Position numbers and translations under genes: made by a program
DNA from: Alphaproteobacteria bacterium
GTDB taxonomy: Bacteria > Pseudomonadota > Alphaproteobacteria > RF32 > CAG-239
Assembly: GCA_045633945.1 (NCBI GenBank)
Contig: JAZQZH010000021.1
Span: 30,808-94,807, forward strand
Reading direction: 5' to 3'
Length of the DNA stretch: 64,000 bases
Notes under the pieces: model-generated
What the model was told of the DNA's origin: nothing
The model's database searches: none
What the model saw: only the letters and a program-made list of their open reading frames with translations
In this document: piece by piece, positions 22,081 to 57,200 of the stretch
Numbering within the stretch: the first letter of the stretch is position 1
How the letters are laid out: each line of letters begins with the position of its first letter

Positions 22081-22617
22081 TTGGAGGAAAAATATTCCAA
22101 AGAAGAGATGAAGTCAATTCGAATTGGTTTAATGTCTCTATTAGTAATTTTAGTTGTTGTATTTATTACAATTTCACATAACACATCTATAAAAAATGAT
22201 GGGTTAGGTGAAACATATAATATTTATGCTGATTTTGGACGAACCGATGGTCTAAATTTGGGGGACGCGGTTCGTATGTCTGGAGTAACAATTGGTAGAG
22301 TGGTAGCTAATAAATTAGATGAAAATTATACAACAAGATTAACTCTAGAAATATCATCTAATATTAAAATTCCAGATGATAGTAGCGCATCAATAGTTAG
22401 TTTCGGTTTAATTGGCGGGAAATATGTTGAGATAGATGTTGGTGGTTCTGAAGAATATATGGCCAAAGAAAGTACCATTGGATACACACAAGATGCTATG
22501 GTTTTAGAAGAATTGTTAGAGCGCATAATATCTTTGGGAAAGATGAAAAAAGATGCAATAAAAGATGAAAACATTGAAGTAATAGAAGAAGTAGCAGAAG
22601 GAGAAGGTAATGAATAA
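22081..22617 (+). CDS. mlaD: MCE-domain protein (MlaD-like), copy 1
   Basis: N-terminal TM plus MCE domain (YNIYADFGRTDGLNLGDAVRMSGVTIGRVVANKLD...IVSFGLIGGKYVEIDVG). Ends with an acidic tail. Confidence 0.7.
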   Translation: MEEKYSKEEMKSIRIGLMSLLVILVVVFITISHNTSIKNDGLGETYNIYADFGRTDGLNLGDAVRMSGVTIGRVVANKLDENYTTRLTLEISSNIKIPDDSSASIVSFGLIGGKYVEIDVGGSEEYMAKESTIGYTQDAMVLEELLERIISLGKMKKDAIKDENIEVIEEVAEGEGNE

Positions 22618-23065
22618 AAAACCAGTTGAGACAATTATGGGCATGGTAGTACTCGTTGTGGCTGTACTGTTTATGATGTTTGCATATAGAGTATCCGATT
22701 TGCATGTAGTCAAAGGATATGATATAAATGCTAAATTTTTAAAAGTTGGAGGCCTAAACACAGGAGCAGATGTTCGTATCAATGGCGTAAAAGTTGGTAC
22801 AGTTATTGCTCAACAAATAAATAAAGAAGATTATATGGTTGATGTAAAAATGAGTATACTTCCTGAAATAGTGTTACCTAAAGACAGTGTATTGACTGTT
22901 GCAGGAGATGGTTTAATGGGGGATAAGTTTATAAAAATAGAGCCAGGAAAATCATCCGAAAAAGTTATGCCAGGAGAGGTTGTTAAAAATACTAAAGATG
23001 CAAAATCTCTAGAAGATATGGTCGGTGAAATCATTTTTATGGTGACAGGAAATGAAGATAAATAA
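22610..23065 (+). CDS. MCE-domain protein (MlaD-like), copy 2
   Basis: TM plus MCE domain (YDINAKFLKVGGLNTGADVRINGVKVGTVIAQQIN...). Overlaps copy 1 by 8 nt. Confidence 0.7.
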   Translation: MNKKPVETIMGMVVLVVAVLFMMFAYRVSDLHVVKGYDINAKFLKVGGLNTGADVRINGVKVGTVIAQQINKEDYMVDVKMSILPEIVLPKDSVLTVAGDGLMGDKFIKIEPGKSSEKVMPGEVVKNTKDAKSLEDMVGEIIFMVTGNEDK

Positions 23066-23813
23066 AAGTATTATATTGAGCTCAGTACTCGGCGTGTGTA
23101 TTTCTCAGGTAGCAATGTCTGCTGAAATTAATACCAATGCTGCTCTTATGCAAGCAATGGACAAACTAACAGGACGTGTAAATAAAATTACAATTCCTGT
23201 TAATTCTAAAATTGCATTCGGTGATTTTTCTTTGGTTTTACGCGCTTGTAAAAAACATCCTCCAGAAGAAACTCCGGAAAACTTTGCATTTGTTGATGTT
23301 ACGGATAAAAGTTTTGGAACAGAAGAATATAATATATTTAGAGGTTGGATGCTTTCATCTGCTCCTGGTATAAATTCTATTGAACACCCGATATATGATG
23401 TGTGGTTGCTTGAATGTATTGATAGTGAAAATAAGTCTGCAGAAATTTTAACTAAAGAAGAGCTCGATAGAAGAGATAGTCTTCCTACTAAAGATTTTAT
23501 GCAAGGACAAAATATTGCTCAAAATTTAACATCTAAAGATAATGAGATAAAAAGTAAAGAAGTTAAAAAAGCAATACATATTAAAGAATTTATGAATGAA
23601 GATAGAGATATCGAAAAAGAAATTTTTCAAAAAGGCGTTATAGAGGTTGATAATGACGTAATGCGAGATGACGATAGCCCCGAAAATTTGCTTAATTTTA
23701 CTAAGCAAGGTAATAAAGATGTAAAAGAAAATACCGATGCAGATTCTCACTTAATGAGTGATGATATCACAAAAGCTATTGATGAAGAAATAAAACAGCT
23801 ACAAGATTTCTAA
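23052..23813 (+). CDS. Hypothetical secreted protein downstream of the MlaD pair
   Basis: Signal peptide (ILSSVLGVCISQVAMSA). Overlaps the mlaD paralog by 14 nt. Has an acidic C-terminal region. Confidence 0.45.
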   Translation: MKINKSIILSSVLGVCISQVAMSAEINTNAALMQAMDKLTGRVNKITIPVNSKIAFGDFSLVLRACKKHPPEETPENFAFVDVTDKSFGTEEYNIFRGWMLSSAPGINSIEHPIYDVWLLECIDSENKSAEILTKEELDRRDSLPTKDFMQGQNIAQNLTSKDNEIKSKEVKKAIHIKEFMNEDRDIEKEIFQKGVIEVDNDVMRDDDSPENLLNFTKQGNKDVKENTDADSHLMSDDITKAIDEEIKQLQDF

Positions 23814-25363
23814 GATATAGTAATATATATATAAGAAGACATAGCCGCATAAATTATAGAAACAGCCAATATTATATATTGTGCTGTTTTATTTTTGGGT
23901 ATTAAGCTACCAATAATAAAACTTTCAGCAAGCATTATTAAAGTAAATAATCTATAATCTGATGAGCAGATATATGGTAATTCCATTGTATATTTTATTA
24001 TATATCCCCATGTGATTATCCATATAGATATAAATAAAATTGCGTAAGCATTGTTGTAAGTGCTTTTATTTGTAGTTAATATAATAAATCCTAATAAAGA
24101 GACCAATTTAATCACTATATTTATCAAATAAATGATTGTCGCAGCTGCCTCTATATTTTTACTAAATATTCTTAAGTCCCATTCTCCAAAAAGCTCTGTT
24201 TTTATAATGGCCAAAATCATATTCGCATCATTTACATAAGGAACATTCATAAAAGGAGAGGATAGCATTGAGAAGTCTGTTAATCTATCAAATAAAGAAA
24301 GATTATAAAAATTTTGCCCACCTGGAGAGGTGCTAGGTATATTATAAAATTGCATGTCAAATAAAATATGATTGCGTACAATCCATAATAATGACAATGG
24401 AACAGCAATAATTACAAACAAAGAAATTGCTCTTATTGTTTTTTCTTTGTGATTGCTTTTCAATAATTTAAATAAGAAAAATAACGATATGCAAGGAGCA
24501 TATAGTAACATAGATAGTTTTGATAATACTCCAAAACCAAATCCAATAGCTGAAAGTAATATGTGTTTTATCGAGTCTTTTTTATACCACATTAGTATAT
24601 AATAAATAACAAAAACACTCCAAAATAAAACAGCTACATCATTTGATATATATCCTGAAAATAAAAATAAAGTAGGGTTAAAAGATATTAAAATTAGCAA
24701 GGCTAAATATGTCTTTTTTGAAAATCTAAATAAACACAATATGCGAGCTATAAATATAGTTGTTGCTGTTACATAAAATAAAGATAAATACTGTAACCCT
24801 TCATAAGCAACAGAATAAGCATCCCACAATGTATTGCCAATAGTATATACTAGTTTTTGTAATATGAAATTTAAAGGTTGATGGAAAGTATAGTACATAT
24901 ACCAAGGATTAAAATATTTCCAGTTTAGGCCATTTTCTGATATTTTTGATATATATGTAATAATACCTGTTAAATCATGTTGAAGAAAATCAACTTTTGT
25001 ATTTTGAATATAATATAAATGAAAAATGAAAGATAAAGAAATGATTATTGATGAAATATGATATAAAGAGTTTTTATTTTTTATGGCATACCAAGAAATA
25101 AGCAGTGTTTCAATAAGTAATAAAAAAATATCTTTTTCATAGAGGAAAAAATAAAACACCAGAGATAATAAAGTTACCCAAATAACAATAATACGATCTA
25201 TAAATTCTTTTTGTATAAATAAAAATATTGTTGATACCAATATGAAGTTAGAACATTGCGCATTAATATAATGTCCACCAAAAAACATGCCTGCTGATAT
25301 AAAAAACAACAGACATGTTAATGTAAGAAAGCAAAAAGGATTATTTCTAATAAAGTTTATCAC
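23810..25363 (-). CDS. Polytopic membrane protein, putative GT-C fold glycosyltransferase (PMT/ArnT-like)
   Basis: 517 aa with about 12 predicted TMs. An aromatic-rich first loop (LQHDLTGIITYISKISENGLNWKYFNPWYMYYTFHQP) matches GT-C architecture. Lies 12 nt downstream of the TolC-like gene on the same strand. Confidence 0.4.
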   Translation of the reverse strand: MINFIRNNPFCFLTLTCLLFFISAGMFFGGHYINAQCSNFILVSTIFLFIQKEFIDRIIVIWVTLLSLVFYFFLYEKDIFLLLIETLLISWYAIKNKNSLYHISSIIISLSFIFHLYYIQNTKVDFLQHDLTGIITYISKISENGLNWKYFNPWYMYYTFHQPLNFILQKLVYTIGNTLWDAYSVAYEGLQYLSLFYVTATTIFIARILCLFRFSKKTYLALLILISFNPTLFLFSGYISNDVAVLFWSVFVIYYILMWYKKDSIKHILLSAIGFGFGVLSKLSMLLYAPCISLFFLFKLLKSNHKEKTIRAISLFVIIAVPLSLLWIVRNHILFDMQFYNIPSTSPGGQNFYNLSLFDRLTDFSMLSSPFMNVPYVNDANMILAIIKTELFGEWDLRIFSKNIEAAATIIYLINIVIKLVSLLGFIILTTNKSTYNNAYAILFISIWIITWGYIIKYTMELPYICSSDYRLFTLIMLAESFIIGSLIPKNKTAQYIILAVSIIYAAMSSYIYITIS

Positions 25364-25375
25364 AATTATTCTCTA

Positions 25376-27244
25376 TTATAGGTCTCCAGAAGCGCAAGGG
25401 CTACCAACTTGACATTTGTGATACACCTTAGCGCGTCTATATCCATTTAAGCCCTTATATTCCATTGTATGAACATACACATTATTTACGGTAATTGTAA
25501 AACTCAAAACAGCAGAGTTTCCAGTCTTGTCTATTGCGTAAACTTTAATTCTGTATGATCCAACATCGTCTAAAGAAGGGGTTCCTGTAAAGGTGCGAGT
25601 TTCATCACTATATGTTAACCAGCTAGGTAGACCCGCATCATCTAAAGAACCTGCAACCGTTTTATATTCACCATTCCAATTTACTTGTTCGAAAACCTCA
25701 TCTGGTAATCTTATACTAATTTCTGATCCTGCGCCAACAACAGTATCAGGAACAAGAACTCTAGAAGAAATATCAAGAGGAGGTTTCTTGTTCGAAAGAG
25801 GAGTATTGAGGGATTGAGATGCACTAAAAATTCCCTCATTCCATTCATCCAACTTCTTTCTAATACTGATTGCAATAGCAGAAGGTGTTTCATAAAGTAC
25901 ATCAGCATCTACTACATCCATGCCGATACTTGCATATAGGCGGCTGATAGCTTCTTGTAATTCAATATAAGATAAAAATGCATTTGCTTCATCAACAATG
26001 GCTCTTGCCGATTCTAAGTGACTTATAGCCTTGTTAGCTCCTTCTTTGTTCGTGATATCTTCAGCAATACCCTCTGATGTTGTAGCAACCCCCATGTTTA
26101 GGTAATAGTCCTCAATAGCAGATTGATATAGAGCCCATGAAAGATATACTTGGTTTAGAACAATGTTTGTCAATCTCTGGCGCGCTAAAGAGTTATATGT
26201 TTCATTATTTAAAAGTCTAATATCTTCAAATAATGTCATTGATAAATCTCTAGATTCTTTAGACCATTTTCTATTGTAGTAGTTAGGGTCTTGATTATAA
26301 TCGCTATTATCAATTGTATCCATATCCTTGATAACTAATTTTAGTTCTTCTTCAGAAGTAATTGCATCAAATACTCTTAATTCTGGGCGATTCGTTAAGG
26401 CTAGCCACTCAAGTTGTTGTAATTTTGCTCTCATAGAAGGAACGGGGAAGTTACCATATTCTGAACCAGCTAACTTTATTTCAGTTGATGGGTAGAAGCC
26501 AAGTAGACCAGCAAATTGAGCTTGAGCTGTTTCGAATTTTCTGCGTAAATCTGCAAGTTGTTTGATGCTTTCTAAATATTTACGTTTCTTTACAAGTAAG
26601 TTTGTTGAGGGTTTCTTGCCATTCTTGATCAATTCATTAGAGCGAGCACTTAATTCATCTACAACTCTAACAAGATATTCATTCATATCATCAATAACAG
26701 GTATCATTCTTTGAGCGCTAAGTGCTTTCCAATAAAGAGAACGAGCTTCTAGCATAATATTATTGATAACTTTTCTACTTTGTTCACCTGTTAAAATATC
26801 CTGATTGGGATTCTCGCTTTGGTAATACATAGAAGAAACATCAAGTAAATTCCATGAAACTTTTAAGTCTGCAGGAACAGCATCGCTTTCAGATGTTGTG
26901 GCATACCCTAAGTTTTCAGCAATAGTAGAAATATTTGCTGGGGATATATTGTTTTTAACTAGATTCTCTTTATAAGAAGCAAGTCTTCTAGAGTAGTTGT
27001 ATTTGATAGCTAGAGCCATTGCCATATACATATCAATAGGCTTCGTAATACTAGACGGTGTGCCTATATACATATTTTGCATATCGACATCTGCTCTAAC
27101 AGCTCTATCCCAATCCGAATAGTATGCTGACATAACAGGAGCATCTATAGATGTATTATTGTTTGTGTAAGTAGAGCATGCTGATAAAAAACTAACAGCT
27201 ACTCCGATAAAATATATACATTTTTTCATCAAAGTTTCCCTCAA
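25376..27244 (-). CDS. NodT/TolC-family outer membrane factor lipoprotein with an extra C-terminal He_PIG (putative Ig) domain
   Basis: Lipobox FLSAC. OEP-type repeats (LEARSLYWKALSAQRMI..., LADLRRKFETAQAQFAGLLGFYP) over ~470 aa. Then LPSWLTYSDETRTFTGTPSLDDVGSYRIKVYAIDKTGNSAVLSFTITV, the PF05345-like consensus (LPxGL..d..TG.isGTP...G.y...v.a.D..G). A Cys-containing tail follows. Confidence 0.6.
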   Translation of the reverse strand: MRETLMKKCIYFIGVAVSFLSACSTYTNNNTSIDAPVMSAYYSDWDRAVRADVDMQNMYIGTPSSITKPIDMYMAMALAIKYNYSRRLASYKENLVKNNISPANISTIAENLGYATTSESDAVPADLKVSWNLLDVSSMYYQSENPNQDILTGEQSRKVINNIMLEARSLYWKALSAQRMIPVIDDMNEYLVRVVDELSARSNELIKNGKKPSTNLLVKKRKYLESIKQLADLRRKFETAQAQFAGLLGFYPSTEIKLAGSEYGNFPVPSMRAKLQQLEWLALTNRPELRVFDAITSEEELKLVIKDMDTIDNSDYNQDPNYYNRKWSKESRDLSMTLFEDIRLLNNETYNSLARQRLTNIVLNQVYLSWALYQSAIEDYYLNMGVATTSEGIAEDITNKEGANKAISHLESARAIVDEANAFLSYIELQEAISRLYASIGMDVVDADVLYETPSAIAISIRKKLDEWNEGIFSASQSLNTPLSNKKPPLDISSRVLVPDTVVGAGSEISIRLPDEVFEQVNWNGEYKTVAGSLDDAGLPSWLTYSDETRTFTGTPSLDDVGSYRIKVYAIDKTGNSAVLSFTITVNNVYVHTMEYKGLNGYRRAKVYHKCQVGSPCASGDL

Positions 27245-27351: not shown

Positions 27352-28101
27352 TTGGTGATGACGGCTATGTTTGATTTATTATATACATTATTTAAATATA
27401 AAGAAAAAGATCTGAAAGATGAGCTAGGGTATTATCCTGAAAAGGTAAGTGTGTCAGCTTTTCCTGAGAGAAGATATTTGTGGACATCTAGATTCTTAGT
27501 TGTGTTTTCTTGTATTAGCATGTGTGTTACCATGATTTTAGGATGTGTATTGTGTTTGATGATACCGCAAAAAAAATCAGAAGTTATGCCACTACAGATT
27601 GATTATAAAAAGCATGAGGTTACACGTATGCAGTACGCTGAATATAATGCTTTTGCAAGTAATCTTGTTACAGATAGTGTTATGGCTGATTATATCATAA
27701 ACAGATACACTATTGGTGAAGAATTTGAAGAGTTGGCTAATCGTTATAGTGAAAATGAATTTTTCTATTTGGCTTCAAGTGAAGAGGTGTGGGGGGAGTT
27801 TGAGAGAACAGAGAAGCCATATTTTGAGATGCTACAAAAGACTGGTGTGCGAAGAAAAGTGATAATTGAACAGAGTTATCCTGTCTCATTTAACTTTTGG
27901 CAAGTTCGTTTTCAGACAGTAGATACATATCCTAATAGTGATGAAAAATTAGTTAGTAGCTGGTTGGCATCTATTAGAATGACATTTAGTTTTACAAAAT
28001 ATGACAATAAAAAACAGGGACTAAAAAATCCATACGGTACAAGTGTTGTTGTATATAATTTATCATATTTAGGTCGTAAAACAGTAAAAAAAGAGGAATA
28101 A
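27352..28101 (+). CDS. VirB8-like bitopic protein (NTF2-like periplasmic domain); alternative: Tim44-like domain protein
   Basis: Cytoplasmic N-terminus, a single TM (FLVVFSCISMCVTMILGCVLCLMI), then a ~180-aa domain ending ...LKNPYGTSVVVYNLSY, which resembles the VirB8 NPxG(F)xV..Y C-terminal signature. Confidence 0.4.
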   Translation: MVMTAMFDLLYTLFKYKEKDLKDELGYYPEKVSVSAFPERRYLWTSRFLVVFSCISMCVTMILGCVLCLMIPQKKSEVMPLQIDYKKHEVTRMQYAEYNAFASNLVTDSVMADYIINRYTIGEEFEELANRYSENEFFYLASSEEVWGEFERTEKPYFEMLQKTGVRRKVIIEQSYPVSFNFWQVRFQTVDTYPNSDEKLVSSWLASIRMTFSFTKYDNKKQGLKNPYGTSVVVYNLSYLGRKTVKKEE

Positions 28102-35488: not shown

Positions 35489-36151
35489 TTATAATCTGTT
35501 TGAGATTCTTTTTAGTGCATCTTCATTGGCTAGTACTTTGTCGTAGAACTTTTCTAAGAACCAATCAATATTTTCACCTTCTTCAATAATCATTTGATAA
35601 AAGCGTTTTCTATACTCAATAACCATACTTACATTTGATATAGATACATCTACAGCTTGAATGCGATTTTGTTTGCCTCTAATTAGTTTGAATTCAACAG
35701 GAATTTTTTCGACAGGAACCTCACCGGCGAATTCTCCCAACATAACAGAACAGGTAACGGTTGTAAATTTTGGATATTCTACTACATCGTCAATACTAAA
35801 AGATATGTTGGATGAAGTAAACTTTATATTAAATTGTTTATATAAACTCAATATGTATCTTTGAAATAAATTATTATATCTAGTTTTCTGAGAGTTATTC
35901 ATTTTTCTTGCATATTTTCCAATTACAAACTTGGAGACATACTCAATATTTATGTCTTCTAAAATCATTTGATCGAGTTTTGCGTATTTTTCTACAGTGT
36001 TCTCCATCCCTAATGTCTGTAGTAACTCCTGTCCTTTATCGTTAGCCCAAACTCTAGCTTCTTCAGCATTAATAGAGACCTCTGAAGCTTTAACCATGCC
36101 TCCCCAAAAAATAAATGTTATATATAATAAAAAATGCAAGAATTTAATCAT
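35489..36151 (-). CDS. mlaC: Phospholipid-binding periplasmic protein MlaC (Ttg2D/toluene-tolerance family)
   Basis: Signal peptide plus Ttg2D-like fold sequence (...YVSKFVIGKYARKMNNSQKTRYNNLFQRYILSLY...). Confidence 0.7.
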   Translation of the reverse strand: MIKFLHFLLYITFIFWGGMVKASEVSINAEEARVWANDKGQELLQTLGMENTVEKYAKLDQMILEDINIEYVSKFVIGKYARKMNNSQKTRYNNLFQRYILSLYKQFNIKFTSSNISFSIDDVVEYPKFTTVTCSVMLGEFAGEVPVEKIPVEFKLIRGKQNRIQAVDVSISNVSMVIEYRKRFYQMIIEEGENIDWFLEKFYDKVLANEDALKRISNRL

Positions 36152-36216: not shown

Positions 36217-37671
36217 TTATTTTAATGTTGCCAAATATTCAAACTCTGTTTGTTTGTATAATGTGTTAATAATGTCAGGGGCGTATACTTGAGAGTATTT
36301 TTGTTCACCATACATTCTAAAGGCTCTTAAATCAAAGTGATTCTTTGTATAAATAAATTTAGGACGATTATTTAATATAATATTATTTATATCAACAATC
36401 TTTTTTAGGCCAAATTCTTGTTCCATTACAGGTATCAGCATATCAAGGCCAAACCAATAATAACTAGCATCTAATCTGTATATGTTAAAATTTTTATCAT
36501 ATCCATTCATTACAATATCATCTTTATCAGAATTTTTATGAACATATTGTGATAATTTATAGTTATTATAGCTATTATGAATTTCAGAAGTTTGTATTAT
36601 TTTGTTAAAAAGAAATCCTTGATATAAAAATAGGATTATCGCAATCAGTACATTTGTGCCCCAATATTTGCCTAGATACTTCGTGATGAATAAAGATAAA
36701 ATTAAAGCATTTAAAAATACTAAAGTTGTATAATAATTAGGGTGTGGCGAAAAATAAAAAGCTCGCATTACAAATTCTGTGCAATAAAGAATAGATATAA
36801 TTTTAAAATATAGATTTTCTTTTTTGAATAAATACAAGGCTATAATAAATGTTATACCATAAATACTTGTAATTAAATTGCTATACCAAAAAGAGCCTCT
36901 ATCAAAATAATATACAAGAGCTTGATTAAAACGATAATTTAGAGCAAAAAACTCAATTCCTGCGCCTTTTAGGATGAAAAACATAATGCTAAACGAGATT
37001 AATAAAACACATGGCACAGATGCAAGTATAATATTTTTAAAAGTAATTTTTTTAATAAATAATAAGCCAAACAGAATTGTTATAATGTTTGCTAAAAGAA
37101 ATGCAATTTTTTGTAAAAATAAAAAAGATATTCCAAAGCAAATAAAACTTATAACCAAATTTTTTAATTGTTTGTTATTTAAATAGCAAAACCAATAATA
37201 TATGCCCATAATAAAAAATAAATTCATGAAATTATCTGGGCGAAATTGGTAAAAGTTATATAGCGAAATAATGTTGCATAAAGATAAAGCAACAACTATC
37301 CATCCGCATTTTTTATTTGAAAAAAACTGCGATATTTTATAGATGTATAAGAGTGTTAGGCTCGATGCCCCCAAACTAATTAAGCGCATCACGTAAAATA
37401 CTATTGCTTCATCATAAAAAGCTCTAACAATTGGTGCTGATAAAAACCAAAGTAAAGGGTGATGATGTTCAAAAAAATCTCTATATGGAATCTTGCCTTG
37501 ACTCACCAGCCACGAAGCGTGCAAATGCTCAAACTCATCAACAACCTGAAAGCCTGAAAAAATAAATCCATATCCAATTATAAATAAGGACACTATAATA
37601 AAAAGCTTTATTGCATGTATAAGCGACGCATCATCAAAATCATTCAGTTGTTTTTTTATTAGCCTTAACAT
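36217..37671 (-). CDS. GT-C fold membrane glycosyltransferase, PMT_2/ArnT-like (GT39/GT83 type)
   Basis: 484 aa with about 12 TMs. The first periplasmic loop is VVDEFEHLHASWLVSQGKIPYRDFFEHHHP, a DE..H motif like the PMT/ArnT catalytic loop. A 4-nt gap to the upstream FAD-oxidoreductase gene suggests an operon. Confidence 0.5.
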   Translation of the reverse strand: MLRLIKKQLNDFDDASLIHAIKLFIIVSLFIIGYGFIFSGFQVVDEFEHLHASWLVSQGKIPYRDFFEHHHPLLWFLSAPIVRAFYDEAIVFYVMRLISLGASSLTLLYIYKISQFFSNKKCGWIVVALSLCNIISLYNFYQFRPDNFMNLFFIMGIYYWFCYLNNKQLKNLVISFICFGISFLFLQKIAFLLANIITILFGLLFIKKITFKNIILASVPCVLLISFSIMFFILKGAGIEFFALNYRFNQALVYYFDRGSFWYSNLITSIYGITFIIALYLFKKENLYFKIISILYCTEFVMRAFYFSPHPNYYTTLVFLNALILSLFITKYLGKYWGTNVLIAIILFLYQGFLFNKIIQTSEIHNSYNNYKLSQYVHKNSDKDDIVMNGYDKNFNIYRLDASYYWFGLDMLIPVMEQEFGLKKIVDINNIILNNRPKFIYTKNHFDLRAFRMYGEQKYSQVYAPDIINTLYKQTEFEYLATLK

Positions 37672-37680
37672 AAGTAATAT

Positions 37681-39246
37681 CTAAGCTGTTTTTTTTTCTT
37701 CATGATAGTCTGATTCTGTATTGACCGCCCATATTTCTTCACGGTCATTTATGTCTCCCAATATTAAATCGACCGTTTTCATGGCAGCTAGAGTAGAGTG
37801 ATCCATATTATTGTATCTGTGCATACCATTTCTTCCAACTAAATATAGATTCTCAATGTTATTAACATATTGTTTAACGTCATCAAATTTATCATATGTT
37901 CCAAAGTATGCTGGATATGCTTTTTTCACTTTATGTGTGTATGCATCTAACACATCGTTCTTATCAAAAATACCTATTTTATCTGCTTCATTTATTGCAA
38001 ATTCAATAAATTTGTCATTCTCATCATTCCAAATATGATCATTTTCGTTGCAGAAATATTCAAGGCCAATCCACACTGTATCTTTAAAATTATCAACCAA
38101 ATATGGACTCCAATTGTTAAACACCTGAAGTCGTCCAAGTTTAACATCGCGCTCTTGTATATAAATCCATGTATCAGGAACAATGTTATTTATTGTTTTT
38201 ATTTGTGTAGTATTTTTTAGCTTTAATTTATTTAATAATACACCGACAACTCTAAAGTCTCTATACATTAAGCCGCTTGCAATATCTTTAATATTATTAG
38301 GAACATCATTCATAGCTTCTACTAAATCTTTAACAGGCATTGTAGATATGAATAAGTCTCCTTCATAAACTTTTTTGTTGCCATTTTTATCTATCGCCTC
38401 AATTGCTACAATTTTATTTTCGTATTTTATTACACGCGTAACAGTTTCATTGAAAATAATTTTTCCACCTTTTTCTATTATGTCATTTGCAACATTTTGC
38501 CACATATGCCCCGGTCCAAATTTAGGGTAAAAAAAGCTCTCAATAAAACTTGTTTCGACAGCTTTTCCTTTTTTGCCACTTAAATTATTGATGATTTGCT
38601 TTAATACTTTAAGTATAGATATGCCTTTAATTCTTTGAGCCCCCCATTCAGCAGATATTTTATTACAATCTATACCCCATAACTTTTCTGTATAGTCCTT
38701 GAAGAAGGTTAAATAAAGTTCTTTGCCAAAGCGATTTATCATGAAATCTTCAAGGGATTTTTCCTCTTTTATAGGAAAAGCCAATGCTTTCATATAAGAA
38801 CAGCCAATTTTAAACATTCTCCATAAACCAAGTCCTTTTATAGTATCCATATTTAAACTTACAGGATAATTAAAGAATGTTTTCAAGTAATATATACGAG
38901 AAAGCCTATTTCTTTTTAACATTACTCTATCTGTTTTTTCTGGGTCTGGCGCTCCTTTAATGTCTGATAATTCAACATTGCGCTCTAATATTGTATCATC
39001 TTTAGAGGGAGTGCCTTGTAGAGGTAGAATATCAAGCCACCATTTCATAACTCTTTCGGATTTAGAGAAAAATCGATGCCCCCCCATATCTATCTTATTA
39101 TTTTTATAATCAAGTGTTGCGCTTATGCCACCAACGAAATCATTTTCTTCAATAATAATAGGAGAATAATCTGAACGTTGTAATAGCTCATATGCTGCAG
39201 TTAATCCAGCTGGCCCAGCACCGATTATAATAGCTTTTTTACTCAT
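37681..39246 (-). CDS. FAD/NAD(P)-binding oxidoreductase (amine-oxidase/UDP-galactopyranose-mutase-like Rossmann N-terminus)
   Basis: Dinucleotide-binding motif at the N-terminus: [19 protein letters not shown]...[10 protein letters not shown]...MGGHRFF. 521 aa. Confidence 0.6.
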
Positions 39247-39344
39247 AAGATCTCCTCCTTCACGTTACAATATGTAGCAATATATTAATTTTTTTTCTAT
39301 TTTGCAATATAATAAATAAATAGTGTTAATATATTAATCTTTGT

Positions 39345-39368
39345 ATAAAAAAGGGAGCTTTCGCTCCC
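39345..39368 (-). terminator. Rho-independent terminator downstream of pgk
   Basis: GGGAGC TTTC GCTCCC hairpin (39353-39368). On the minus-strand RNA it is followed by UUUUUUAU. Confidence 0.7.
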
Positions 39369-41885: not shown

Positions 41886-44800
41886 TTATCGTTGGTTTTG
41901 ATTTGGATTAAAAGGAGCCTGTGTTCCCTTTCTATCAATAACAATGCTTCTAGTCTCTACATTGGCGTCTATATCATTAGGGCTAACATTCTCAGAAATA
42001 ACTGTACCATCATTCAAATTATTTGATTTTATAATATCAACAGTAAACTCTCTTTCCTCTGTAATTTCATATTCATTACCATCGACAATGTCAAAACCAA
42101 TTTGAACAGGCTTCTCAGAAACAACTGGTAAAGGACGAAGATATAGGCGATCAAAACTATCTGTGCTAGGAACAGTTACTCCAGATGTGGTTCTTTCAAT
42201 GCTATATGTTCCTGCTTCTCCGCAGTCTCCGGCTTGGAAGTATCTTACAACTACATTTTTCGTTCCTGTAACACCATCAATTGTACCATTCTCATTTACT
42301 CTATCTATAACTTCTTTTACATGAGGAGCCATTTCTGGAGAAATATCTTCGCTACAACCTTTTAAGTAGTTTATTGTTGCGGTAATTTCTTTAGAAAATT
42401 CACCGTGTTGATCATTTGACCATGCAACCATTTGCTTCACAGAGAACATTGATTGTTCAACACTCAATCCTTCAAAAATACCTCCTTTAGCTCTCATTTC
42501 ATCAGTAATCATTGATGAGAAGAAGTCATATGCATTATCGCCGTAACGGTCTTTGAAGAATGTTTGCATTGCATCAAATTGTCTTTGAGTAATACCCGAA
42601 TTGTTATATCCGCCACGTTCTTCTACGTTTCCTGCTGCAGGTGTTCCTATTTCAACATCTTTAGAGTCAGGAACTACTTCTGCATTATCCCAATCAAGCG
42701 CAACATCGCTTGCATAAGATGTAACATGTGTTTCAGTATATGTGGCTTCTTCTAAAGTGTTAGACACGTTATTTAACTGAGTACTAGAATATACATTATC
42801 TTCTATATTGGAGCTATTATTAATAAAATTATTTGATGCAACATCTGATTGAGTTACTGCATTGTCTAAGTTTTCAGTCATAGATGTATTAACTACAGAA
42901 CCACTATTATCATAAATAGAAGCAGAGCTATCATGAGCCTCAACATTGCCGCTATGGGATAAATTTTCTGCATTGGTATTTATTACAATTTCTCTATTTT
43001 CAGTATTTAGAGTTATGTCATCGCTACCCCAAGAGCCAACTAATTTTCCATCATCAAGATTATTTGATTGATAGATATCTACATTATATTGTTTTACATC
43101 TTCAATAGTAATTGTTTGTCCTGCGGTAGTATCAAAACCTACTTGTACCTCAGAATAAGGAGTGGGGACAACATCTTCAGGTTCTGAAACTATTTTGGCT
43201 ACAGGTTCGAATACTGTTTTGTTTTCTACAGTTACTGTAGATAATGTATTTTCTCCTCCGCAATTGATTTCGCGAGAAGTAACAATAGTATTCATTTTTC
43301 CTTCAACACCTAAAATGCTACCATCATCCATTACACTATCTAATACTAAGCCGTCTTGATAGGTTAGAGTAGATAATGTTTTACATTCAAAGAAACTGTC
43401 AAACTTTTTAATATCATCATGATGTTGCCATAAATTCCAAGAAGACATTCTCTCATATTTAAAGAGTACTTCATCTCTTGTCATTCCTTCGAAGGCACCG
43501 CCTGATTGTAGCATATCATCAGTGATTCTAGAATAATATTCTTGATATTTTTCAGGTCCACCCCAAAAAGTTTGTAGTCGATTCCATTGATTTCTTGTTA
43601 TGCCAGATTCTTTTGACCAGTCACTAGGAGCTTGAACTGTTTTTGGAACAACATCTTCAGTCACTGTTTCCACAGTAGTTTCATTATTTTCTGTTAATGA
43701 TGTTGTTTCATGGGCTTCAACAGGTTCAGGAGTGCTAGTTGCAGGCATATTAGCTTGAGTATTAGTTTCTGTATCAGTATCAAGGGCTGCATAAGCAATA
43801 AAAGCAGAAGCTGCGCCAAAACCTACAACAGCAAGAGCTTTGTCCCAGAAATCTTTGTTTTTATTTTTAAGAGTAGCAATAGTATTTGTTGCTCCATGAA
43901 CAGAGGAAACAGCTAGGCTAGCAAGTCTTTGTGCTCCACGTGCTGCAATAGCACCTGTAGCACCAAAAGTTCCGCTTACAACAGCTCCTGCAGCACCTAA
44001 TCCTATAAGTCCTGCTGCACTCCCCCATCCAGCTTCTTTAAAGTATTCTTTTCTTGATTCTTTATTGCTGAATATAGAATTAGATGCTTTTTTAAGTCTT
44101 TCCATAAAGGTTGTTTTTTTGTCTTTAGGATTATTTTTTGATAAACGAGCATCGCGTCTAGCTTTTGTGATAATTGGCCATACCCAAGATGATGCAACTT
44201 TGTACGCACCATATGCTACAACTGCAGTTCCTAGCCATGGAGCGCCAATGGCGGTTGCGCCGATTAACCCACTAACAGCTGCAATATCTGTAATTGTTTT
44301 TGGAGCTCTATCGCGCATGTTGTTGGCAAATTCATATCGTTGCCCCCAAATTTGTTTGGCTTTCTGAGAAAAAGATTCCTTTGCTCTAGAGATAAAATTG
44401 CTTGCTTTATTTAGAAAAGATTTTGCATTCTCAGATTTTGCAGCTGCTGATAATACTGAGAGTTTGTGTGCGTATTTGCCCGCATTATATTCAGTTTCAG
44501 CACATGATGCTATAACAATATCAGCATGAACTTTAACTTTTTGATTAAAATCTGCAGCTTTATCTTGAAGTTCCATGTTGCCTAAAGCAAGTTGTTGATT
44601 TTGGAAAAACTCTTCATTATCTTCAGTTAGAGCTTTTTCAGCATTAGGAACATTATCTGCAATTTGAGCAGCGGTCCGTAGATGCATTAAAGAGCCTAAG
44701 AATGATGTTTTTATTTCTTTTTTTAGATATTCTATTTTTTTATCATCAGTCAGTTCGGAAAATTCAGAGCTTTTAGATTGCTCGCACATAACATCCAGTT

Positions 44801-45194
44801 TAGTTTTTTCAACGAGCATACTGATATATTTTTCTTTTTCTTCTTGCGATAGCTCATAAACGTTATCTCCATTATTATCTATAACTGGAGTGTTATTAAT
44901 AGCTAGTGATACTTCTTCATCTTCAAGTAGGCTTTTTTCAAAATCATTATTATCTAGTTTATTATATAAAAACTCAGTATTTTTAGCTAAAACCTCAGCA
45001 GATACACTAAGTCGTTCATTATCAGCATGTTTTTGTTTAGATAATTTTTCATAGTTACGAGCCTCTATTAATATCTGAGCAATTTCTTTATCATGCTCTT
45101 CAATGAGTTTGATGGCTTTTTCAAAAGTTGCTTGATCGGATTCTACAAATCCACCTGCAATATTATATGCCTCATCAATGGTCATTAAATTCAT
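41886..45194 (-). CDS. Large orphan protein: coiled-coil N-terminus, glycine-zipper hydrophobic hairpins, Thr/Glu-rich linker, tandemly duplicated ~230-aa C-terminal module
   Basis: I prefer the start at 45194 (MNLMTIDEAYN) with RBS AGGAGT 9 nt upstream; the track start is 45230. The hydrophobic region (track residues ~313-482) is GLIGATAIGAPWLGTAVVAYGAY ... GWGSAAGLIGLGAAGAVVSGTFGATGAIAARGA ... ALAVVGFGAASAFIAYAAL. Residues 543-757 and 879-1114 are paralogous (GIT(R/Q)xQ...QTF...GG.FEG...VGFD...NNL.DG). Confidence 0.6.
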   Translation of the reverse strand: MNLMTIDEAYNIAGGFVESDQATFEKAIKLIEEHDKEIAQILIEARNYEKLSKQKHADNERLSVSAEVLAKNTEFLYNKLDNNDFEKSLLEDEEVSLAINNTPVIDNNGDNVYELSQEEKEKYISMLVEKTKLDVMCEQSKSSEFSELTDDKKIEYLKKEIKTSFLGSLMHLRTAAQIADNVPNAEKALTEDNEEFFQNQQLALGNMELQDKAADFNQKVKVHADIVIASCAETEYNAGKYAHKLSVLSAAAKSENAKSFLNKASNFISRAKESFSQKAKQIWGQRYEFANNMRDRAPKTITDIAAVSGLIGATAIGAPWLGTAVVAYGAYKVASSWVWPIITKARRDARLSKNNPKDKKTTFMERLKKASNSIFSNKESRKEYFKEAGWGSAAGLIGLGAAGAVVSGTFGATGAIAARGAQRLASLAVSSVHGATNTIATLKNKNKDFWDKALAVVGFGAASAFIAYAALDTDTETNTQANMPATSTPEPVEAHETTSLTENNETTVETVTEDVVPKTVQAPSDWSKESGITRNQWNRLQTFWGGPEKYQEYYSRITDDMLQSGGAFEGMTRDEVLFKYERMSSWNLWQHHDDIKKFDSFFECKTLSTLTYQDGLVLDSVMDDGSILGVEGKMNTIVTSREINCGGENTLSTVTVENKTVFEPVAKIVSEPEDVVPTPYSEVQVGFDTTAGQTITIEDVKQYNVDIYQSNNLDDGKLVGSWGSDDITLNTENREIVINTNAENLSHSGNVEAHDSSASIYDNSGSVVNTSMTENLDNAVTQSDVASNNFINNSSNIEDNVYSSTQLNNVSNTLEEATYTETHVTSYASDVALDWDNAEVVPDSKDVEIGTPAAGNVEERGGYNNSGITQRQFDAMQTFFKDRYGDNAYDFFSSMITDEMRAKGGIFEGLSVEQSMFSVKQMVAWSNDQHGEFSKEITATINYLKGCSEDISPEMAPHVKEVIDRVNENGTIDGVTGTKNVVVRYFQAGDCGEAGTYSIERTTSGVTVPSTDSFDRLYLRPLPVVSEKPVQIGFDIVDGNEYEITEEREFTVDIIKSNNLNDGTVISENVSPNDIDANVETRSIVIDRKGTQAPFNPNQNQR

Positions 45195-45387
45195 CTTATT
45201 TTTACTCCTAAAATCGCTATTCTGCTGCACTATACCCTATTTAATGAATAAATTCAATATTTTTTTTGTCAATTTTAAATATTTTTTAAAAAATTGTCAA
45301 ATTTTTGTGTTTTTTACGATGCTGAAAAAAATGTTGCTAAATATAATCAATAATATTATAAGACAAAAAAACAACAAAGAGGAACTT

Positions 45388-53298: not shown

Positions 53299-54195
53299 TT
53301 ATAATTTATTGTCCAGCTCTTTTATCGTTTTTAATGCTTCATTGTACAAAACCTTATTTTTGCGTATAGATAAGCGGATGTCTGATTTTGCTAATTCTTC
53401 ATTTGTTCCGCAATCATAACGTTCAGAAGTGGTTATAACTCCCCTCAATTCGCATCCGTTGCTTGCAGCCAAATTAATAGCATCAGTTAGATTTATTTCA
53501 CCATTACTTCCTTTTGTAACCATTGGTAAAATGTCTAAAACAAGATTAGGTAAAATATATGGTCCCATACTTGCATATTCAGACTCTATTTCTTCAATTT
53601 TAGGCTTTTCAACAACTCCAGATGCTTTAATTATGTTTTCGGATTCTTTTTCAATCCCTTTAAGTACACCATATCTTGAAAGCTGTTCTTTAGGATAGGA
53701 TATAATATTTTCAACTATTCCACCAACTCTTTCATATACATCTAGTAATTGTAATAAGATACCTTTTCCTCTGCATACATAAACATCATCTACCCACATT
53801 ACCATAAAATCTCTATCTCCAATAATATCTTTAGCACACAATATTGCATGTCCATTTCCTTTAGGTTCATCTTGTTTTGCAAAAGAAAATTTTACACCAC
53901 TTGGTGTTGTGCGTTTTAGAGCTTCCCATAATTCTAATTTGTCATTTCGAAGTAAACACTCTTCCAAAGACGGATTTGGTGAGAAATATCTATTATACAT
54001 AGATTTACTAACTTCGTCACTATATATGAAAATAATTTCTTCAACACCTGCTTCTATACACGCATCAACAGCATATTGAATAATAGGAAGGTTATTTAAG
54101 CATAAAAAACCTTTATGCATAGCTTTAGTAGCAGGTAAATTTCTTGTAGATAATCCTGCAACAGGTAATACAGCAACAGTGGGTCTATTAAACAT
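53299..54195 (-). CDS. galU: UTP-glucose-1-phosphate uridylyltransferase
   Basis: VAVLPVAGLSTRNLPATKAMHKGFL N-terminal nucleotidyltransferase motif. 298 aa. Confidence 0.85.
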   Translation of the reverse strand: MFNRPTVAVLPVAGLSTRNLPATKAMHKGFLCLNNLPIIQYAVDACIEAGVEEIIFIYSDEVSKSMYNRYFSPNPSLEECLLRNDKLELWEALKRTTPSGVKFSFAKQDEPKGNGHAILCAKDIIGDRDFMVMWVDDVYVCRGKGILLQLLDVYERVGGIVENIISYPKEQLSRYGVLKGIEKESENIIKASGVVEKPKIEEIESEYASMGPYILPNLVLDILPMVTKGSNGEINLTDAINLAASNGCELRGVITTSERYDCGTNEELAKSDIRLSIRKNKVLYNEALKTIKELDNKL

Positions 54196-54264: not shown

Positions 54265-57200
54265 TTATTTAACAGATAAAGCTATTTTTTTACCAACACT
54301 TCCTGATAAGGTGATTTTATCTACATTATTTGCAGCAAATATATATTTATTGTGATTTTTTATTGGTTTATATTCATTTTTACTACGTAGGATATATTTA
54401 CCAACTTCGCCGCTACCAGAGATTGTTGATGTATTTGTAAAAACATAATGTTTATGTTGAAGCTCTTTTTTATATTCAGCAACAATATCAGATGTTTTTA
54501 CATCAATATTTCTTGTGAAATTATCATTTGAATTCGCAAAAAACTTTAGGAACTGCTTTTCTTTTTGGGGTTCAAGTTTCTCTTTTATTTTATCCTCATT
54601 GATAGTATTTTCATCAATAGATACTTTTATACCTTCTTCTTTTGTAGCATCTTTCTTGAAATAAAATCCCTTTCTTTTATGTGATGTTAATGATGATTTT
54701 ATATCAATATCTACTAAATCTGTTTTTCCAATATTCATAGCAATAACAGGATTTATTTTTAATGTATTTGAATTATTCTCTGTTTCTATTGCTACTTCTT
54801 GCTGCTTGATATTTTTTAAAACCATTTCCTCTTTTTGAGAAATATTATATATTATATCTGATAACGCTAGTTTAGTTTTATCTACAATAGAATTATCAAT
54901 AGCAACAACTGGCTTCTGAGCAATATCAATATCTTCAGCTACAACAACTGGTTCTAGGTTAGTCTTAGTATCTTCAGCTATAACAACTGGTTCTAGGTTA
55001 GTCTTAATATCTTCAGCTACAACAACTGGTTCTAGGTTAGTCTTAATATCTTCAGCTACAATAACTGGTTCTAGGTTAGTCTTAATATCTTCAGCTATAA
55101 CAACTGGTTCTAGGTTAGTCTTAATATCTTCAGCTACAACAACTGGTTCTAGGTTAGTCTTAGTATCTTCAGCTATAACAACTGGTTCTAGGTTAGTATC
55201 AATATCTTCAGCTACAACAACTGGTTCTAGGTTAGTATCAATATCTTCAGCTACAACAACTGGTTCTAGGTTAGTCTTAATATCTTCAGCTACAACAACT
55301 GGTTCTAGGTTAGTCTTAATATCTTCAGCTATAACAACTGGTTCTAGGTTAGTATCAATATCTTCAGCTACAACAACTGGTTCTAGGTTAGTATCAATAT
55401 CTTCAGCTATAACAATTGGTTCTAGATTAGTCTTAATATCTTCAGCTATAACAACTGGTTCTAGGTTAGACTCAATAGTTTTTTCTGCAACTACAAAGGT
55501 ATTCATTTCTGGAATATTATTAACTATACTCTTTATTCCTGTTTCACTAGCAGGTTGAATGTCGTGCTTGTTTTTAGCTTTGAGTGTATTAAATAAAGAG
55601 GCTACACTATTTGCAAAAGTATTAAAAGATATTTTTAACTCATCTTTGTTTTTTAAAATACTACTTTCTGTAGTATTATTATTTTTAATTTCATTATCTT
55701 TTATAATGTTGTCATTTTTTTTTTCTAATTCAGGTGCATTATTTTTTGTCTGATTAGTATTTTTAACAACAGGTGAACTAATATCTATTTCATCCACTGT
55801 TTCTGGTGGATAGAGTAAATATGTATCATAATCTCTAGCTTCAATATCTAAAACAGATCTAAATTCATCAATACTACTTACAATGTTATCGTTTAATTGT
55901 TTGATATAAGATAACATTGTATATAGAGCTTGAACAGCCATATCATTATTTCTCTTCATATCAATAAGACTGCTACTATCGATAATATTTAGATAACTAT
56001 CTCTAATTCTGTTATATAATACGCTAATTTTATCACTATTATCAGATATTTTATCAGTATCTTCTTTTAATTTTGCAACTGTTTCTTCAGCAATAGGTTC
56101 ATCTGTTGTTTTTAACAGTTCAATCTGTTTCATGTAAACCTCAACTAAACTATTGTAGTAAGAAGAGTTGTTTTGTGCCAAATTAAATAACCATGTAAGT
56201 TTACTAAAACTGTTGTCGAATATATATTTACTTTCAGCGATGAAGTTTTCTTCAAGAGATTTAGGTAAATATATTATTTTAGATGACTCTTTTGCAATTT
56301 TAGCCTCTATATCCATCAAATCTTTTTCACTATTTTGCCCTTTTAGTGCAGTGCCAAGATTATTAATATTATTTTCAACTTCTTTTAATTTCGCTTGTAG
56401 TTGATTATATGCTTTTACAATATCTTTATTGTTAGTTGTAGGCTTAAATTTAATGAAATCCAAAGACATGCGCTCTATGTTTTGCTTAGTTTCATCAATA
56501 CTTTTTTGTAAAATATCGATTCTACTTTGTAAAATACCATCTTTTTGCTTTTTTATGCCTTCATTTTCAATTAAAATTCGATTCTCAACCTCTTTAATAC
56601 GCTCTATACTTTCGTTAATATTAATTTTTAACTCAGGATTCGATACATCTCCAGATAGGTTAAATTTAACCACGTCAGAAAATGAAGCATTATTATAAAA
56701 TATATTAAAGTCAGACGTTATTAACCAACTACCTAAATTTACATTTATTTTCATGTCTAAATTTTCAACAGGTGAGCTTAAAACAGAATTATCTGATACA
56801 AATACACCTTTTGAAAACTCAAATTTACCACTTCCTTTATTAAACAATGTCTTGCCCATTCTTAGGTTGCTTGCAATAACTTCTTCCAAATCTTTAATAG
56901 ATTTGCGTTGTTCTAATTCAAATTTGATAACATCCAAATCCCAACCATTCATAACAAGATTTGTGAGACTATAATTACCCTTGGCGCTTAAATTATCATA
57001 AAATGCTTTTTCTGAAAGTAGATTAGAAGCAAAACTACCTTTTGAGTTTAAGATGGCTTTTTCAATCTTATATATACTACCTCCAAATGATGGTGCATTA
57101 TATTTAGATATATTATAATTACCTGTAATCTTTGCTAAATTTTTACTATCAAGAATGAAGTTAACATCAAATACACTGTCATCTTTTTTTATGTTAAATT

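Follow-up and report, generated by a model that had tools for sequence, protein, structure and literature searches.

What does a flavoprotein do beside a membrane-bound glycosyltransferase? The question arises from two adjacent genes in a 64-kb stretch of contig JAZQZH010000021.1 (the whole stretch is called the window below), which comes from an uncultured gut alphaproteobacterium of low GC content (~31%) whose nearest records are metagenome-assembled genomes (MAGs) from animal guts labelled “Alphaproteobacteria bacterium”. An earlier note on this DNA had described the pair as a flavin adenine dinucleotide (FAD)-dependent oxidoreductase translationally coupled to a GT-C glycosyltransferase. 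Our analysis suggests that the flavoenzyme is a relative of the UDP-galactopyranose mutases (UGM), and that the pair may form the core of an extracytoplasmic glycosylation system of the Gtr (“three-component”) type, in a branch that uses furanoses, a proposal that we hold to be somewhat likelier right than wrong. The two genes are as follows.

37681..39246, minus strand: flavoenzyme gene, 521 amino acids (aa), ATG start at 39246; NF005546/PRK07208.1-2, UGM-like, predicted to be cytoplasmic

36217..37671, minus strand: GT-C gene, 484 aa, ATG start at 37671; predicted polytopic glycosyltransferase of the PMT_2 type

Both open reading frames (ORFs) lie on the minus strand, at the coordinates given in the earlier note, and all the motifs it quoted are present, including YRDFFEHHHP. 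They are real genes and not chance ORFs. Homologs of the flavoenzyme number in the thousands and are up to 100% identical, and the GT-C protein gave 250 matches in a word-index search, while an exhaustive search recovered 2441 representative clusters at E≤0.001, 94 of them at E≤1e-30.

The flavoenzyme matches the NCBIfam model NF005546 (PRK07208.1-2, “hypothetical protein”) over its full length, scoring 801.9 bits where the cut-off is 418. It is predicted to be cytoplasmic, since the Rossmann fold begins at residue 4 and there is no signal peptide. Its nearest solved relatives by sequence are the UGMs, both with the single sequence (E=3.5e-17) and with a profile (E=5.5e-20). A Foldseek search with the AlphaFold model (mean predicted local distance difference test, pLDDT, 79.5) gave the same picture: the first 34 matches are all to the UGMs of Aspergillus fumigatus or Trypanosoma cruzi, with E-values of 1e-25 to 1e-21, a TM-score of 0.65 and a sequence identity of 20-21%. 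A homolog that is 84% identical to the flavoenzyme, P0136, is labelled “protoporphyrinogen oxidase” by JGI, which the family models and the fold indicate to be a misannotation.

The similarity to the UGMs extends to the active site. The FAD-binding Rossmann motif GAGPAGL is located at residues 9-15, in which G9-A-G11-P-A-G14 is invariant in the family. The residues G55-G56-H57 are likewise invariant and align to the histidine loop, GGH63, of the A. fumigatus UGM. Alignments based on hidden Markov models (HMMs) match residues that are largely invariant in the family to the active site of the fungal enzyme: they place H63, F66 and Y104 of the latter at H57, F60 and Y127 of the flavoenzyme, R182, W315, Y317 and R327 at R205, W360, Y362 and R372, and Y419, R447, Y453 and N457 at Y444, R472, Y478 and N480. 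Judging by the structure titles, several of these positions are residues that have been mutated in deposited structures of the A. fumigatus UGM. Four of the aligned residues, R205, R372, Y444 and Y478, are invariant or at least 90% conserved, and their fungal counterparts R182, R327, Y419 and Y453 are, as we take it from the established UGM literature, the residues that bind the UDP diphosphate. The uridine motif of the bacterial UGMs, GKELYxxFFKGYTxKQWG (GKELYEAFFKGYTIKQWG), aligns almost letter for letter to a segment of the flavoenzyme, which corresponds to FFKGYTIKQWG in Klebsiella pneumoniae and FFRGYTRKQWG in Deinococcus radiodurans and includes Y185-T186 and W190.

Compared with the UGMs (Glf, EC 5.4.99.9) of the A. 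fumigatus and T. cruzi type, which are ~500 aa long, the flavoenzyme thus has in common the fold, the Rossmann domain and the GGH loop, and also the diphosphate-binding Arg/Tyr residues, the Trp/Tyr of the sugar pocket, the equivalents of R447, Y453 and N457, and the FFxxYTxKxWG motif of the bacterial enzymes. It differs in that the identity is only ~20%, in an insertion at approximately residues 75-110, and in a C-terminal tail. The tail (37681-37740) contains the residues W506, N509 and Y514-H515-E516, which are invariant in the family, have no counterpart in the UGMs, and are modelled with low confidence; it might be a docking element. Taken together, the family, the fold and the conserved residues suggest that the flavoenzyme is very probably a mutase that interconverts the pyranose and furanose forms of a UDP-sugar. 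The earlier description as an FAD protein with a likeness to UGM holds, but the enzyme is most likely a redox-neutral mutase rather than an oxidoreductase.

The membrane protein is recognized by the Pfam model PMT_2 with 33.1 bits against a cut-off of 26.1, in a segment (residues 94-227) that spans transmembrane (TM) helices 3-7. NCBI lists its homologs under the name “glycosyltransferase family 39 protein”, and none of the NCBIfam models matched the protein. An AlphaFold model built on 43 homologs (pLDDT 90.9, predicted TM-score 0.91) contains 11-12 membrane helices, which makes the twelve in the earlier note approximately right, followed by a soluble C-terminal alpha/beta domain of ~120 aa (residues ~365-484). 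All Foldseek matches of the model in the PDB at E≤0.4 are GT-C enzymes with a probability of at least 0.96, including STT3/PglB, ALG9/ALG12, ALG6, DPY19, Pmt4, EmbA/B/C, AftA/B, and PimE, with TM-scores of ~0.5. In known GT-C enzymes, the catalytic acidic residue sits directly after the first TM helix. Consistently, D45, E48 and H49, located directly after this helix, are invariant across the 43 sequences, down to 26% identity, which agrees with the acidic loop pointed out in the earlier note. The residues D65, H69, H70 and P145-D146 in the first and second extracytoplasmic loops are also invariant in these sequences.

The reading of this protein as a GT-C enzyme with a likeness to PMT and ArnT is thereby borne out, and the protein matched neither an O-antigen ligase nor a domain of unknown function. 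It shares with ArnT (GT83) and PMT (GT39) the PMT_2 match, the GT-C fold and the acidic residue after the first TM helix. However, among all PDB chains, neither the single sequence nor a profile found a match at E≤10 to a solved ArnT, PMT or other GT-C enzyme, the protein matches neither the MIR nor the PMT model of Pfam nor any ArnT model of NCBIfam, and its loop has the pattern D-[ED]-x-E-H followed by the His-rich YRDFFEHHHP instead of the context of the PMT DE motif. The subfamily (ArnT-, PMT- or oligosaccharyltransferase-like) is not assignable, since there is no sequence match in the PDB and the TM-scores of ~0.5 do not discriminate. The protein is therefore best described as a predicted GT-C-fold glycosyltransferase of the PMT_2 type, which is not demonstrably an ArnT or PMT proper, and the analogy to ArnA and ArnT acting on lipid A that the earlier note had drawn found no specific support, as no ArnT model or solved ArnT was matched by sequence. 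From the fold and the GtrA genes adjacent in relatives, the enzyme may use a donor linked to polyprenyl phosphate on the extracytoplasmic side.

A scan of one genome per species yielded at least 599 confirmed flavoenzyme loci (individual loci are denoted by L numbers below). The best 80 of these represent Alphaproteobacteria, Clostridia, Bacteroidales, Elusimicrobia, Planctomycetes, Spirochaetes, Acidobacteria, Melainabacteria, and Methanobacterium, with 51-82% identity to the flavoenzyme. Neighbours were counted in the loci with enough flanking sequence, which were 56 for membrane proteins and 47 for GtrA, the glycosyltransferases of family 2 (GT2) and the short-chain dehydrogenases/reductases (SDR). 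A protein of at least 350 aa with at least six TM helices is encoded within 150 nucleotides (nt) of the flavoenzyme gene in 35 of the 56 loci, on the same strand in 32 of them, while the background gene mix gives a chance expectation of 7.5% (binomial p ~1e-25); within 3 kb, such a protein is present at 46 loci. The earlier note would have taken it as a refutation if the flavoenzyme grouped with pigment or heme desaturases and occurred without the membrane partner in relatives; in these counts, a large membrane protein adjoins it far more often than by chance. A gene of the GtrA family is located within 1 kb in 21/47 loci (~45%). A PgfS/ArnC-like GT2 gene within 4 kb is less frequent (8/47), as is an SDR gene within the same distance (4/47), and GtrA and GT2 genes are both near in only two of the 47 loci. 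The canonical glf gene differs in this respect, as it lacks the genomic link to GtrA and large membrane proteins that the flavoenzyme gene shows.

The arrangement of these genes varies, and in distant relatives the two genes adjoin or overlap in genomic surroundings unrelated to those of the window. L001 and L010 have a divergent GtrA gene followed by the flavoenzyme gene, the GT-C gene and a gene of the SDR epimerase family, located between tig and clpP-clpX. L007 has the order GtrA, flavoenzyme, GT-C amid genes for ankyrin-repeat proteins. L093 has gap-pgk and mlaC surroundings like those of the window, but the two genes have been turned around together, so that the GT-C gene comes first. 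The gene order in the sister genome (L095) is identical to that in the window. The SDR gene adjoins the flavoenzyme gene in L078 and L086. The SDR proteins of the relatives have only partial similarity to known enzymes, being closest to the GalE-type nucleotide-sugar enzymes, and they could make the UDP-sugar substrate of the mutase. A more distant PRK07208 member (35% identity) on a plasmid of Methylomagnum ishizawai overlaps a GT2 gene and adjoins a GT39 gene in a glycan cluster.

Fusions lend further weight to the pairing. In a MAG of the Acutalibacteraceae (L077 8001-11177, JAZNOP010000076.1), the reading frame of the flavoenzyme continues into that of a protein of ~540 aa with 10 TM helices. 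Stand-alone proteins that are 33-41% identical to this membrane part are encoded directly 3' of the flavoenzyme gene in L068, L075 and L067. The fusion, seen in a single MAG, is either a Rosetta-stone fusion or the result of a lost stop codon. In L051 (1361-3292) and L072 (6009-7976), the gene directly 5' of the flavoenzyme gene encodes a polytopic protein of ~500 aa to whose C-terminus a GtrA/DPMS TM domain is fused; the polytopic protein has a DUF6020 match in L051.

The flavoenzyme is more conserved in sequence than its partner, with 91% identity between the window and L095 compared with 77% for the GT-C protein. Between Alphaproteobacteria, Clostridia, Bacteroidales, Planctomycetes and Methanobacterium, the flavoenzymes are 51-60% identical, and the unusually high identity across phyla suggests strong constraint, horizontal transfer, or both. 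An apparently phage-borne copy (L096, 52% identical, in MT835743.1, “UNVERIFIED: Bacteriophage sp.”), which would have hinted at seroconversion, was rejected: the record is a fragment of a Clostridia chromosome that encodes V-type ATPase subunits, Spo0A, a LysR regulator and a methionine ABC transporter. The window pair thus belongs to a widespread and strongly conserved module that seems to be uncharacterised, and it is a reduced version of it, since GtrA, GT2 and SDR genes are not nearby.

The surroundings of the pair contain the following features, given in the direction of transcription.

39353..39368, minus strand: terminator-like hairpin GGGAGCGAAAGCTCCC followed by the T-run TTTTTTAT, directly 3' of the pgk stop codon

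39279..39337, minus strand: AT-rich putative promoter region with two sigma-70-like matches, TTAATA-17-TATTAT and TTGCAA-17-TATATT

39251..39260, minus strand: Shine-Dalgarno sequence AAGGAGGAGA, 4 nt 5' of the flavoenzyme ATG, read directly from the sequence

37672..37680, minus strand: intergenic spacer ATATTACTT, 9 nt, without a Shine-Dalgarno sequence, read from the sequence

35489..36151, minus strand: gene for a MlaC-like periplasmic lipid-binding protein, 220 aa, 65 nt downstream of the GT-C gene

The hairpin separates pgk from the pair. The promoter region is only suggestive, as the number of promoter-like matches in it does not exceed that in shuffled sequence. With the hairpin after pgk, the promoter-like region and the Shine-Dalgarno sequence before the flavoenzyme gene, the two genes are predicted to form a transcription unit of their own. 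No terminator was detected between the GT-C gene and the MlaC-like gene, which may belong to the same unit.

Between the TAG stop codon of the flavoenzyme gene (37683-37681) and the ATG of the GT-C gene lies ATATTACTT, so that the spacer measures 9 nt and not the 4 nt claimed earlier. Unlike the flavoenzyme gene, the GT-C gene has no Shine-Dalgarno sequence upstream. The spacer is 10 nt in the close relative L095, and in distant relatives the two genes overlap by 4-26 nt. The translational coupling proposed in the earlier note is plausible: from the short spacer, the lack of a Shine-Dalgarno sequence before the GT-C gene, and the spacing or overlap in relatives, we infer that the two proteins are probably co-translated.

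How could the two enzymes work together? In the proposed pathway, the cytoplasmic flavoenzyme, with reduced FAD, would interconvert a UDP-pyranose and a UDP-furanose in the manner of UGM, as its family, fold and conserved residues suggest. The sugar could be galactose, L-arabinose, N-acetylgalactosamine or fucose. A GT2 of the ArnC/GtrB/PgfS type, for which the window has no gene, would then move the furanose to polyprenyl phosphate, and a GtrA-family protein, whose gene is adjacent in almost half of the relatives but absent from the window, would flip the lipid-linked sugar. Finally, the periplasmic D45/E48/H49 site of the GT-C enzyme, whose fold is supported by the model, would pass the sugar to an acceptor in the envelope; candidates are lipopolysaccharide, another periplasmic glycan or a protein. 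The idea of an envelope-glycan modification module, put forward in the earlier note, is therefore supported as far as the GT-C enzyme and its UGM-like partner are concerned, while a role in glycan modification is a possibility that depends on the acceptor. As for the make-up of the module, the pair of FAD enzyme and GT-C stands, but in relatives it is also accompanied by GtrA and sometimes by GT2 and SDR, which the window lacks.

Gtr-type three-component systems include GtrA/GtrB/GtrC of Shigella and Salmonella phages, CsbB/GtcA/YfhO, and PgfS-PgfM1-PgfE-PgfM2 of Streptococcus mutans. What the loci described here share with them is a GT-C enzyme with an acidic periplasmic loop and, in relatives, an adjacent GtrA and in some cases a PgfS/ArnC-like GT2; the SDR epimerase at some loci recalls PgfE. 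They differ in that the UGM-like flavoenzyme is the most constant member, usually in the position of the GT2, and the window contains only the flavoenzyme and the GT-C. The decaprenyl-phosphate-arabinose pathway of mycobacteria comprises DprE1/DprE2, Rv3789, and the Emb and Aft enzymes.

Published three-component systems attach sugars, pentofuranoses among them, by means of a periplasmic GT-C that receives the sugar on polyprenyl phosphate (Kelly et al. 2024, PMC11127046). In Citrobacter youngae, the components are the PPPRS ORF15, a MATE flippase and a GT-C of family GT136, with or without the SDR epimerase ORF13 (PMC11127046). The pentofuranose systems obtain their furanose from phosphoribosyl pyrophosphate (PRPP) with a UbiA-like synthase; which epimer is made depends on an SDR or on DprE1/E2 (PMC11127046; commentary PMC11194591). 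The concept is common to the pentofuranose systems, the mycobacterial pathway and the module proposed here: a furanose on polyprenyl phosphate is delivered to a periplasmic GT-C, and cytoplasmic auxiliary enzymes set the sugar. However, the sugar in those systems is PRPP-derived, whereas a UGM-like mutase implies an origin from a UDP-sugar, and none of the GtrABC, Pgf, pentofuranose three-component or mycobacterial arabinan systems has a UGM-like enzyme. The Pfam scan, the neighbours at the loci and the searches of the window recovered no PPPRS, MATE or DprE1-type protein. In lactococci, galactofuranose is added in the cytoplasm from UDP-galactofuranose (PMC10821137). In the open-access literature, we found no published Gtr-type system that includes a mutase, and no account of NF005546/PRK07208 or of a module of GtrA, mutase and GT-C in open-access text.

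Several observations weigh against the proposed pathway. The flavoenzyme scores only 39.6 bits with the curated Glf model TIGR00031, for which the cut-off is 303.75, and has no match to the Pfam model GLF (PF03275) at E≤0.1; it is, on these grounds, predicted to be a homolog of Glf and not an ortholog. Two uridine contacts of the A. fumigatus UGM are changed (F106 to V129 and Q107 to S130) and the equivalent of N207 is unclear; confidence in the modelled flaps concerned, residues 118-136 and 205-234, is low (pLDDT<50). Neither GtrA nor a polyprenyl-phosphate GT2 nor an SDR was found in the 64-kb window by tblastn and iterated HMMs made from the relatives, and none of the three is encoded within 8 kb of the pair in the closest relatives (L012-L016), which leaves the second and third steps without an identified gene here and is the weakest point of the proposal. 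Also across the wider set of loci, only 17% have a GT2 gene close to that of the flavoenzyme. Homologs of the GT-C protein (29-34% identity) have no flavoenzyme neighbour in L003, L005, L092 and L094. Although PMT_2 or PMT matches were obtained for some of the membrane neighbours (L025, L060), many of the large membrane neighbours in other phyla match no recognisable family. In an hhalign comparison of the GT-C profile with single sequences, from L075, L018 and L027 and with the other GT-C of the window, the probability was below 10%. The label “GT-C” for the membrane neighbours thus applies, as far as sequence models go, to the subset with PMT_2 or HMM matches.

It is also conceivable that the two enzymes are only loosely linked, in that the mutase feeds cytoplasmic glycosyltransferases and the GT-C uses another donor, for example as an oligosaccharyltransferase or polymerase acting on a glycan on undecaprenyl pyrophosphate. 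The best Foldseek matches of the GT-C model are oligosaccharyltransferases (STT3, PglB) and not ArnT or PMT, many of the loci are placed inside larger polysaccharide clusters with GT2, GT4, aminotransferase and deacetylase genes, and the window contains no gene for a flippase or synthase. However, TM-scores at the level obtained here do not separate the GT-C subfamilies, the frequently adjacent GtrA points to a monosaccharide donor linked through a monophosphate, and the overlaps or 9-nt spacer, the inversion as a unit in L093 and the fusion in L077 suggest more than membership of the same pathway. We consider a loose link unlikely.

A different division of labour would be that the flavoenzyme is docked to the membrane, where it would form a complex with GtrA and the GT-C and take over from the GtrB-type synthase, either by handing the sugar of a covalent flavin-sugar adduct, made from a UDP-sugar, to polyprenyl phosphate or by isomerising a pyranose on polyprenyl phosphate or pyrophosphate to the furanose. 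The frequent order of GtrA, flavoenzyme and large membrane protein mirrors gtrA-gtrB-gtrC, and the low counts of nearby GT2 genes, alone or together with GtrA, would be explained; the in-frame fusion in L077 would fit such a complex, and the invariant C-terminal tail that is absent from the UGMs could serve for docking. If true, lipid-linked furanose donors would be made by a new route that depends on flavin, in many bacterial phyla and in methanogens. Yet the flavoenzyme retains the UDP-binding motif and both diphosphate-binding Arg/Tyr of the soluble UGMs, which points to a nucleotide-sugar substrate, and no such chemistry has been described. Furthermore, the genes of three-component systems are often scattered, so that the absence of a neighbouring GT2 is weak evidence, and the fusion in a single MAG could be due to the lost stop codon. 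Both versions of this scheme are quite improbable, and a soluble mutase that supplies the UDP-furanose to a separate synthase is the interpretation that we prefer.

The flavoenzyme could instead be a true oxidase that, together with the SDR as reductase, epimerises a lipid-linked or nucleotide sugar via a keto intermediate, as a non-homologous analogue of DprE1/DprE2. The precedent is well established, as DprE1/E2 operate with the GtrA-like Rv3789 and a GT-C (PMC11127046), the fold belongs to the amine-oxidase/PPO superfamily (PPO, protoporphyrinogen oxidase), whose members are mostly oxidases, and the SDR gene lies directly after the GT-C gene in L001 and L010 and beside the flavoenzyme gene in L078 and L086. 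Set against this, an SDR gene is found within 4 kb at only four of the 47 loci and not in the window, conservation falls on the active-site residues of the mutases, DprE1 belongs to another fold family (VAO/FAD_binding_4) that does not match the flavoenzyme, and the partial similarity of the SDR to GalE-type enzymes fits the supply of a UDP-sugar to the mutase. We regard such an oxidase as very doubtful. That the flavoenzyme is itself a homolog of DprE1 was considered separately and rejected, as it has no FAD_binding_4 match, its fold is of the amine-oxidase/UGM type, and there is no SDR in the window.

Finally, that the flavoprotein is a PPO, a carotenoid desaturase or an amine oxidase located next to the GT-C gene by coincidence is effectively refuted: despite the JGI label on P0136, the PPO structures that follow the UGMs in the Foldseek search (E ~1e-21 to 1e-18, 11-14% identity compared with 20-21% for the UGMs), and weak matches to the CrtD, HemY and phytoene desaturase models, these model matches are confined to the FAD-binding N-terminus (residues ~2-70) and far below the cut-offs (23.9 bits against 97.85 for TIGR00562, and 27-34 bits against ~500-570 for CrtD and phytoene desaturase), the neighbourhoods carry glycan genes and not heme or pigment genes, the enrichment of membrane neighbours is strong, and the protein groups with the UGMs and not with the heme or pigment desaturases by sequence, profile and fold alike.

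To our knowledge, mammals lack furanose sugars. Furanoses are antigenic, they are frequent phage receptors, and they are drug targets. If the proposed pathway is correct, it would provide a function for a very widespread and strongly conserved family of “hypothetical proteins” (NF005546, in at least 599 species-level genomes) and correct its annotations as “protoporphyrinogen oxidase” and “oxidoreductase”. The source organism would be predicted to carry a furanose decoration on an envelope glycan, and the combination of GtrA, NF005546 and GT-C would be a simple genomic marker with which to look for furanosylated surface glycans of gut commensals and archaea. The pathway would, moreover, represent a second route to extracytoplasmic furanosylation, from a UDP-sugar via the mutase and a lipid carrier to the GT-C, beside the PRPP-derived route (PMC11127046). 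The general logic, that of extracytoplasmic lipid-linked glycosylation, is what glycobiologists would expect, and the finding is not peculiar to the source genome.

The window encodes one further protein of the GT-C type.

23810..25363, minus strand: second GT-C-like protein, 517 aa, beside two MlaD genes (22081-23065) and a DUF2155 gene

It corresponds to the other GT-C that the earlier note had reported within ~14 kb, and was recovered with an iterated GT-C HMM (E=4.6e-18), while its PMT_2 score of 24.8 bits is just under the cut-off of 26.1. Both GT-C genes of the window adjoin genes for lipid transport of the Mla type, the pair of MlaD genes in this case and the MlaC-like gene at the flavoenzyme locus. 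The MlaC-like gene is located beside the flavoenzyme/GT-C pair throughout this gut alphaproteobacterial clade (L012-L014, L016, L093, L095), even where the pair is inverted (L093).

A gene at 53299-54195 on the minus strand encodes a GalU-like UTP-glucose-1-phosphate uridylyltransferase (202 bits with TIGR01099, below the cut-off of 326.8), which is a possible source of UDP-hexose for the mutase. Nearby, a giant ORF of 1803 aa (54265-59676, minus strand) has an N-terminal domain of the AsmA family, whose members are outer-membrane proteins of the lipid-transport type. A protein of 1114 aa without a Pfam match is encoded at 41886-45230 (minus strand), and L095 has a gene for 1085 aa at the same position. 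It contains an internal duplication in the form of two similar modules of ~60 aa, which start with GITRNQWNRLQTFW and GITQRQFDAMQTFF. A stand-alone VirB8-like gene (27352-28101, plus strand) adjoins clpP, and beside it lies a gene for a protein of 622 aa (25376-27244, minus strand) with a He_PIG immunoglobulin-like domain and a weak OEP match, an arrangement that is repeated in L095.

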